Assembly: GCF_055900595.2 (NCBI RefSeq)
Contig: NZ_CM148325.1
Length of the DNA: 64,000 nt
Strand: one strand, 5' to 3'
A program made the position numbers and the translations under genes. The notes beneath the pieces are model-generated. The model ran no database searches. It saw only the letters and a program-made list of their open reading frames with translations, and was not told where the DNA came from. The number at the start of each line of letters is the position of its first letter. Within the stretch, counting starts at the first letter, position 1. This document shows, one piece after another, positions 48,451 to 48,560 of this stretch.

Positions 48451-48560
48451 TTCAAGTTGCAGGAAGGCGGCAAGCGAGTGAATCCCCAGGAGCTTACATA
48501 AGTAAGTGACTGGGGTGAGCGAACGCAGACGCAGCACATGCAACTTGAAGTATGACGAGT
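48451..48560. repeat. ERIC (IRU) enterobacterial repetitive intergenic consensus element
   Basis: Contains GTGAATCCCCAGGAGCTTACAT and AAGTAAGTGACTGGGGTGAGCG (the ERIC1R/ERIC2 primer sequences) within an imperfect palindrome bounded by TTCAAGTTGCA...TGCAACTTGAA. Confidence 0.85.

Follow-up and report, generated by a model that had tools for sequence, protein, structure and literature searches.

A Polymorphic ERIC Element Inserted at a TA Between the panC Stop Codon and a Terminator-Like Hairpin in Escherichia coli

Introduction

What occupies the spacer between the convergent genes panC and rpnC, how it came to lie there and whether it acts on its neighbours were the questions raised by one junction in a 64,000-nt stretch of contig NZ_CM148325.1 (assembly GCF_055900595.2), which is called the window here and is numbered from its first letter. 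The convergent arrangement, as stated in a preliminary description of this DNA, is annotated in the RefSeq record NZ_CP098223.1 (E. coli Z0117EC0005), which was 100% identical to the window at this locus. ERIC has been described as a 127-bp miniature inverted-repeat element (MITE) bounded by terminal inverted repeats, with TA at its ends (PMC2229807, PMC3184786, PMC10969869). An element of this kind was found in the spacer. An ERIC (IRU/RU-1) was very probably inserted once at a TA that lies past the panC stop codon and ahead of a terminator-like hairpin, is polymorphic and would form a passive hairpin in the predicted 3′ UTR. The names ERIC, IRU and RU-1 reportedly denote one and the same element, which is said to have been described by Sharples and Lloyd in 1990 and by Hulton et al. 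in 1991.

Results and Discussion

Identity and Limits of the Element

The spacer contains a complete, ordinary full-length ERIC of 127 bp (Table 1). The unit has a TA at each end, and its net gain relative to the empty alleles is 125 bp. It lies in the conventional orientation on the panC strand, where the reverse complement of the ERIC1R site is followed by the ERIC2 site. The span first proposed, 48451–48560, located the element correctly; its limits had to be revised, as 14 nt of the left end and 3 nt of the right end had been left out. The panC stop codon (TAA, 48430–48432) is separated from the ERIC by 4 nt, and the rpnC stop codon is 89 nt from its right end.

Both primer motifs that had been noticed were present, and the 44-mer GTGAATCCCCAGGAGCTTACATAAGTAAGTGACTGGGGTGAGCG, which is the reverse complement of ERIC1R followed by ERIC2, matched at 44 of 44 positions with zero mismatches. 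This was the sole match in the 64-kb window, and the 44-mer occurred in none of 100 dinucleotide-preserving shuffles. The ERIC1R and ERIC2 sequences agreed with the literature, where 246 papers give both and they are the standard ERIC-PCR primers. The imperfect palindrome of the preliminary description was resolved into an outer and an inner inverted repeat around the core. Moreover, the likeness extended beyond the primer motifs, and all 127 bp aligned with copies at unrelated loci (up to 125 of 127 positions identical) in E. albertii, E. coli E69 and Escherichia sp. MOD1-EC7003. The element has the features of a MITE, being small and multicopy, with terminal inverted repeats, a target-site duplication, insertion polymorphism and no transposase gene. 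The sole ORF across it, an antisense ORF of 107 aa that also overlaps the 3′ end of panC, is taken to be spurious.

Table 1. Positions of the ERIC, its parts and the flanking features in the window.
Feature	Position	Strand	Basis
panC, pantoate--beta-alanine ligase	47581..48432	+	annotated alike in NZ_CP098223.1
Left terminal inverted repeat, 5′ arm of the outer stem	48436..48461	+	26 nt, 85% complementary to 48539-48564
Complete ERIC element	48437..48563	+	empty-site alignments, length, full-length likeness to other ERICs
Left TA of the duplicated target site	48437..48438	.	empty versus filled alleles
Conserved ERIC core	48478..48521	+	exact 44-nt match
Reverse complement of ERIC1R site	48478-48499	+	part of the ERIC core
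Apical hairpin of the ERIC core	48484-48515	+	inner inverted repeat
Inner inverted-repeat arms	48484-48497 and 48502-48515	+	
ERIC2 site	48500-48521	+	part of the ERIC core
Right terminal inverted repeat, 3′ arm of the outer stem	48539..48564	+	26 nt, 85% complementary to 48436-48461
Right TA of the duplicated target site	48562..48563	.	empty versus filled alleles
Terminator-like hairpin TGGCGCTACGGCTGATGGCGCCA and U-rich tail ATTATTAATT	48566..48598	+	terminator scan
rpnC, recombination-promoting nuclease, convergent with panC	48653..49573	-	annotated alike in NZ_CP098223.1

Insertion at a TA

The window was compared with K-12 MG1655 and four other strains that have no ERIC at this site. The five empty alleles read as ...GCGTAAT-NCT-TA-ACTGGCGC..., a clean site with a single TA, whereas the window allele reads as ...GCGTAATACT-TA-[TACTCTAAAT...ATGACGAGTA]-TA-ACTGGCGC... 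and the filled alleles follow the pattern CT-TA-[TACTC...GAGTA]-TA-ACTGG. The ERIC between panC and rpnC is an insertion with duplication of the TA. TA at both ends was also the most frequent combination of ends among the other ERIC copies, and the duplication of a TA target is the described signature of ERIC insertion (PMC2229807, PMC3184786).

To consider a recent precise excision, a synthetic site was assembled from the window flanks and used as a query; it had no exact empty counterpart, and excision was rejected. The best empty alleles were 96.8% identical to the synthetic site, and the one that was read (O145 RM9872) carries the G variant of the flank described below; therefore, there was no sign of excision of the ERIC. 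We know of no parent insertion sequence for ERIC.

Distribution of the Alleles and Origin of the Insertion

Occupancy of the site was determined in 5,426 complete E. coli genomes with a 321-bp query across both junctions, and a site was counted as filled when at least 80% of the query was covered. It was filled in 427 genomes (~8%) and empty in the remainder (~92%), in agreement with the earlier expectation that presence would vary between strains. The panC–rpnC spacer has a length polymorphism of 125, 195 or 202 bp. The empty site occurs in K-12 and most strains. A short form, which spans the 321 bp in one piece as in the window, was found in 18 genomes; identity to the query was 100% in 8 and 97.5–98.8% in 10, and 8 of the 18 belong to a rare divergent lineage. 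The long form accounts for ~409 genomes, as all the other filled matches listed span 391 or 398 bp, and it occurs in O157:H7 and O55:H7, among others. The species representative Escherichia sp. E1V33 also has the long form, at the identical site and in the same orientation as in E. coli, with flanking genes that are 98.6% (panC) and 91.5% (rpnC) identical in amino acids.

The base after the terminator-like hairpin was A in all five filled alleles and G in all five empty alleles, a linkage that is based on ten alleles read base by base. The shared site and orientation in the short, long and E1V33 alleles, together with this linked flank SNP, suggest one old ERIC insertion on one haplotype. The alleles further point to one gain or loss of an internal module after the insertion. 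The filled allele persists as a polymorphism, in a short and a long form, in E. coli and at least one sister species of Escherichia.

The Long Form and Its Internal Module

The long form at the panC–rpnC junction was read in O157:H7 F8492, in Ec1120 and in Escherichia sp. E1V33. The short and long alleles at the same TA site differ by exactly one module of ~70 nt (70–71 nt), plus SNPs. The module, ACAAATTCGTCAGGAACGAATTTGCCCAGCCGCAGGCTGGCCTTCGGTGAGAGACATGGATGTCTCTCATT, lies between GCGAGTG and AATCCCC and contains three small hairpins as judged by eye. The window copy, by comparison with the long-form ERICs, is without the module and is canonical across this junction. The 391-bp span was found in O157:H7 strains 493/89 and LSU61 and in O55:H7 genomes; the O157:H7 genomes that span 398 bp, among those aligned or listed, have an additional 7-bp duplication of CAAGTTG.

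This module and its internal position are shared by ERICs of Kosakonia, Raoultella, Leminorella and Citrobacter and by another ERIC at a second E. coli locus near ybfA. Its fixed position across genera and near ybfA therefore marks it as a subfamily feature and no local accident. In 2006, Wilson and Sharp reportedly described long-form ERICs that have about 70 bp inserted internally. The module was found once per genome in 616 E. coli genomes, more than the ~409 with a long allele at panC, and at two places in one genome. Independent spread of the module was rejected, given its single occurrence per genome and the position of the off-locus case that was read (ybfA) within another ERIC. In other ERIC copies, the right arm had a different module at the mirror position, or the left arm had a third one.

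A more speculative proposal, which we regard as doubtful, is that the module may be a discrete unit that is precisely gained or lost and that the sense-strand ERIC may measurably stabilise the panBC mRNA. The module could be a nested mobile or excisable element, or its loss could reflect a palindrome-driven deletion hot spot. If gain and loss were indeed precise, the panC locus would provide a natural before-and-after pair.

ERIC Copies at Other Loci

Copies were searched with the 127-bp element by blastn in the same 5,426 complete E. coli genomes at a coverage of at least 80%. All genomes except one (5,425/5,426), including those with an empty panC site, had at least one such place, nearly all at 95–99% identity. 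The number of places detectable by blastn had a median of 12 per genome and a range of 2–20, which accords with the earlier remark that copies in E. coli are few. For K-12, 19–30 copies have been given (PMC2267715, PMC10969869). The presence or absence of ERICs among E. coli strains is already known, and a passage of PMC10969869 that cites Wilson and Sharp (2006) mentions 14 extra loci outside K-12. RefSeq annotated nothing ("none") at every match that consisted of the ERIC only.

The exact 36-nt ERIC core was also searched across species, with one genome per species, and 95 stretches in more than 15 genera of Enterobacterales were obtained. Among the hosts were Escherichia, Citrobacter, Salmonella, Enterobacter, Kosakonia, Buttiauxella, Leminorella, Atlantibacter, Raoultella, Yokenella, Serratia, Yersinia, Dickeya, Pectobacterium and others. 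An exact core was also present in the 799-kb contig CACSKA010000001.1, labelled Chryseobacterium sp. 18061 (Bacteroidota). To our knowledge, ERIC is otherwise confined to Enterobacterales and Vibrionaceae, and this record is probably mislabelled or mixed.

The position of stop codons was surveyed around 94 other ERIC copies by a crude ORF survey, in which some loci are orthologous and the independent counts are accordingly fewer. A long ORF ran into the right end of the ERIC, with its stop codon within 10 nt, in 23 copies and into the left end in 6. At 18 loci, the stop codon of an antisense gene abutted or overlapped the right terminal TA, with offsets of −4 to +1 nt. Together with the counts of 23 and 6, this suggests that ERICs frequently enter the TA of a stop codon or its immediate neighbourhood, with one preferred orientation. 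The panC copy has the minority orientation relative to its adjoining stop codon.

Two further stretches of the window are related to ERIC. A second, more diverged ERIC lies at ~5820–5948 (−) between rpsB and tsf and was 85% identical over 86 nt (5854–5939). Its right half is overlapped by a match to the Rfam family CssrA, a Shigella chromosomal sRNA (5766–5875, 136.6 bits against a gathering score of 93); therefore, the CssrA family model includes ERIC-derived sequence. In the divergent clcA–hemL intergenic region, ~21520–21578, the core is missing but both ERIC ends (TATACTCTA ... TGACGAGTAT) remain, along with a portion of the right arm, and blastn gave a match of 31 nt at 87%. This stretch looks like a short, internally deleted ERIC remnant.

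Hairpin of the Element and Covariation in the Family

The + strand RNA of the ERIC was predicted to fold into one long hairpin of −55.8 kcal/mol. The mean for shuffled sequences was −27.4 kcal/mol (z = −8.47), and none of the 200 shuffles reached the stability of the ERIC fold. A chance palindrome was ruled out by this score (z of −8.5) together with the failure of the 44-mer to appear in the 100 shuffles. The − strand folded at −48.7 kcal/mol, less stably than the panC-sense strand.

Furthermore, 54 ERIC copies of canonical length from many genera were aligned, with a mean column identity of 87%. The consensus hairpin was paired in 96.2% of the cells, and compensatory double changes were present in 18 of the 36 pairs, in copies that are related and not independent of one another. 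These values of pairing and compensation were reached by 0 of 500 shuffles, and sliding of the partner columns reduced the pairing to 33–44%. The central 12 pairs were fixed by the search pattern and hence were invariant. Outside this fixed core, G.U pairs outnumbered A.C mismatches by 116 to 13 on the panC-sense strand; therefore, the strand shown here gives the better RNA hairpin. The covariation of the arms could have a source other than selection on the RNA, namely the need of a transposase for symmetry at the inverted repeats or common descent within a subfamily.

Predicted Location in the panC 3′ UTR

The terminator-like stem (48566–48588) is short and GC-rich, starts 2 nt past the ERIC and was flagged on the + strand only. 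This hairpin was kept in every aligned allele, filled or empty, and it is therefore likely the native panC terminator; on this basis, the ERIC came to lie past the stop codon but ahead of the terminator. In the fold of a 211-nt segment, the ERIC hairpin and the terminator-like hairpin formed side by side. A scan for promoters found no promoter-like site inside the ERIC or just upstream of it on either strand. Two promoter-like sites, both on the − strand, were detected outside the ERIC at 48660–48632 and 48616–48589. Given this placement, the panBC transcript would include the ERIC in its 3′ UTR. Read-through from rpnC would carry the weaker, antisense form of the ERIC.

Function of the Element

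In the account preferred here, the ERIC, a non-autonomous miniature inverted-repeat element of Enterobacterales, entered the short spacer that runs from the panC stop codon to the terminator-like hairpin and duplicated the TA. It would then be transcribed with the panBC mRNA in its better-folding orientation, and its RNA would form a long imperfect hairpin straight after the panC stop codon. As for the effect on the panBC mRNA, we infer that a passive outcome is most likely, namely an added stable structure at the 3′ end that would stabilise the mRNA no more than modestly. The ERIC would be neither required for nor harmful to pan expression. About 92% of the E. coli genomes have no ERIC here, so no essential role is plausible, which fits the passive account.

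An active role is the alternative that survives best. The ERIC may be a post-transcriptional regulator of panBC (or rpnC) that is kept by selection and that, depending on orientation, either exposes an RNase E site and destabilises the upstream mRNA or acts as a 3′ stabiliser. According to passages of PMC2229807 and PMC10969869 that cite De Gregorio et al. (2005), the ERICs of Yersinia are co-transcribed with their neighbours and have an orientation-dependent effect on the level of the upstream mRNA, which is exerted via an RNase E site in one inverted repeat. The distance of just 4 nt from the panC stop codon, the excess of G.U pairs over A.C mismatches, which suggests a constraint at the RNA level across the family, and the age of the filled allele, which is old enough to be common to Escherichia sp. 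E1V33, also speak for regulation. However, the panC copy has the minority orientation (6 versus 23), for which these passages, as we understand them, report no destabilisation, and the site is empty in ~92% of the E. coli genomes. Regulation is hence considered unlikely, with an appreciable chance still attached to it.

That the ERIC is an independent small RNA gene is very improbable. The Rfam family V_AS5 (Vibrio antisense RNA AS5) spans the whole ERIC at E = 3e-9, isrH gave a weak match, and the other ERIC of the window overlaps the above-threshold CssrA match. The scores at the panC locus were nevertheless below the gathering scores (49.8 bits against 96 for V_AS5, 14.5 against 45 for isrH), and these subthreshold matches are due to shared ERIC sequence and not to family membership. 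A separate sRNA gene was rejected as the main reading on these scores and on the lack of a promoter-like site in the scan described above.

It is highly improbable that the ERIC is a terminator of panC, of rpnC or of both rather than a mobile repeat, even though a very stable hairpin between convergent genes would suit bidirectional termination. On neither strand does the ERIC stem lead into a U-run, and the hairpin with a U-rich tail that the scan reported is the separate, neighbouring one. This hairpin is also present in the empty alleles, and termination is therefore independent of the ERIC, on which ground the candidate was dropped. A functional tie to rpnC, a nuclease gene of the transposase_31 family, such as a mobile unit borne by rpnC that would have the ERIC as its end or its target, has a negligible probability: the two are physically adjacent and an insertion of rpnC itself between panC and panD has been reported (PMC5350276), but K-12 and other strains hold rpnC with an intact empty TA site, so that the rpnC insertion was earlier and independent of the ERIC, and among the 95 ERIC stretches a homologue of rpnC was nearby only at the orthologous panC locus of E1V33, which together ruled this link out.

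Lineage of the Window and Variation Around the Locus

The lineage of the window, compared at 46700–56100 and 28000–31000, is unusually divergent for a genome under the E. coli label: over 9 kb it was ~90–97% identical to both K-12 and O157:H7, where K-12 and O157:H7 are about 98–99% identical to each other beyond panC. At least 99% identity to the window was found in only 8 of the 5,426 complete genomes. These values would fit a cryptic Escherichia clade that is filed under E. coli. At the yadC–panB junction (46700–47100) and in panBC, the sequence is far more diverse than around them: even K-12 and O157:H7 were 84–94% identical there, versus 98–99% further downstream. The panBC genes adjoin the hypervariable yad fimbrial operon, of which the usher region was ~66% identical to K-12. 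Downstream of panC, strains 22AR0750 and CH10508 have an ORF of ~70 aa annotated as "RpnC/YadD family" and then a different full-length gene of the Rpn family. The structure of the rpnC locus thus varies, which fits the reported independent insertions of rpnC between panC and panD (PMC5350276).

Significance for Annotation and Typing

The kind of element and the kind of polymorphism are already known, and the locus offers no new biology and little import beyond annotation. The exact limits of the ERIC, the long-form allele at the same site and the predicted location in the panC 3′ UTR were added to the first reading. Marking the ERIC in annotations would explain the three length differences of the spacer (125, 195 or 202 bp), and an empty, short or long site could be used as a marker of lineage. 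The element adds an ERIC-PCR priming site. Moreover, the locus is a clean worked case of a TA-duplicating ERIC insertion, with empty and filled alleles at hand.

Comparison With Known Systems

Correia elements are documented substrates of RNase III and can carry promoters or IHF sites. The Correia/NEMIS elements of Neisseria and the RUP elements of S. pneumoniae resemble ERIC in that they are small and noncoding, have terminal inverted repeats and TA termini, are likewise co-transcribed with their neighbours and fold into long hairpins (PMC2229807, PMC10969869). Their sequences are unrelated to ERIC.

The Rfam family V_AS5 (RF02818) aligned with the ERIC end to end, at model positions 1–129 (E = 3e-9). 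The score of 49.8 bits fell well short of the 96-bit gathering score and the host differs, and the ERIC is not a member of this family. The similarity is probably homology, because V. cholerae carries ERIC-like repeats (PMC2267715).

The ERIC family itself gave the closest comparison. The panC–rpnC element has the same 127-bp length, exact core, terminal inverted repeats, TA termini and long imperfect hairpin, and it shares the intergenic site beside a stop codon, the low copy number in E. coli and the strain-variable presence. Nothing of substance differs, apart from the less common orientation to the adjoining stop codon (6 versus 23). Every testable feature by which ERIC is defined was found in this element, which belongs to the long-known ERIC family.
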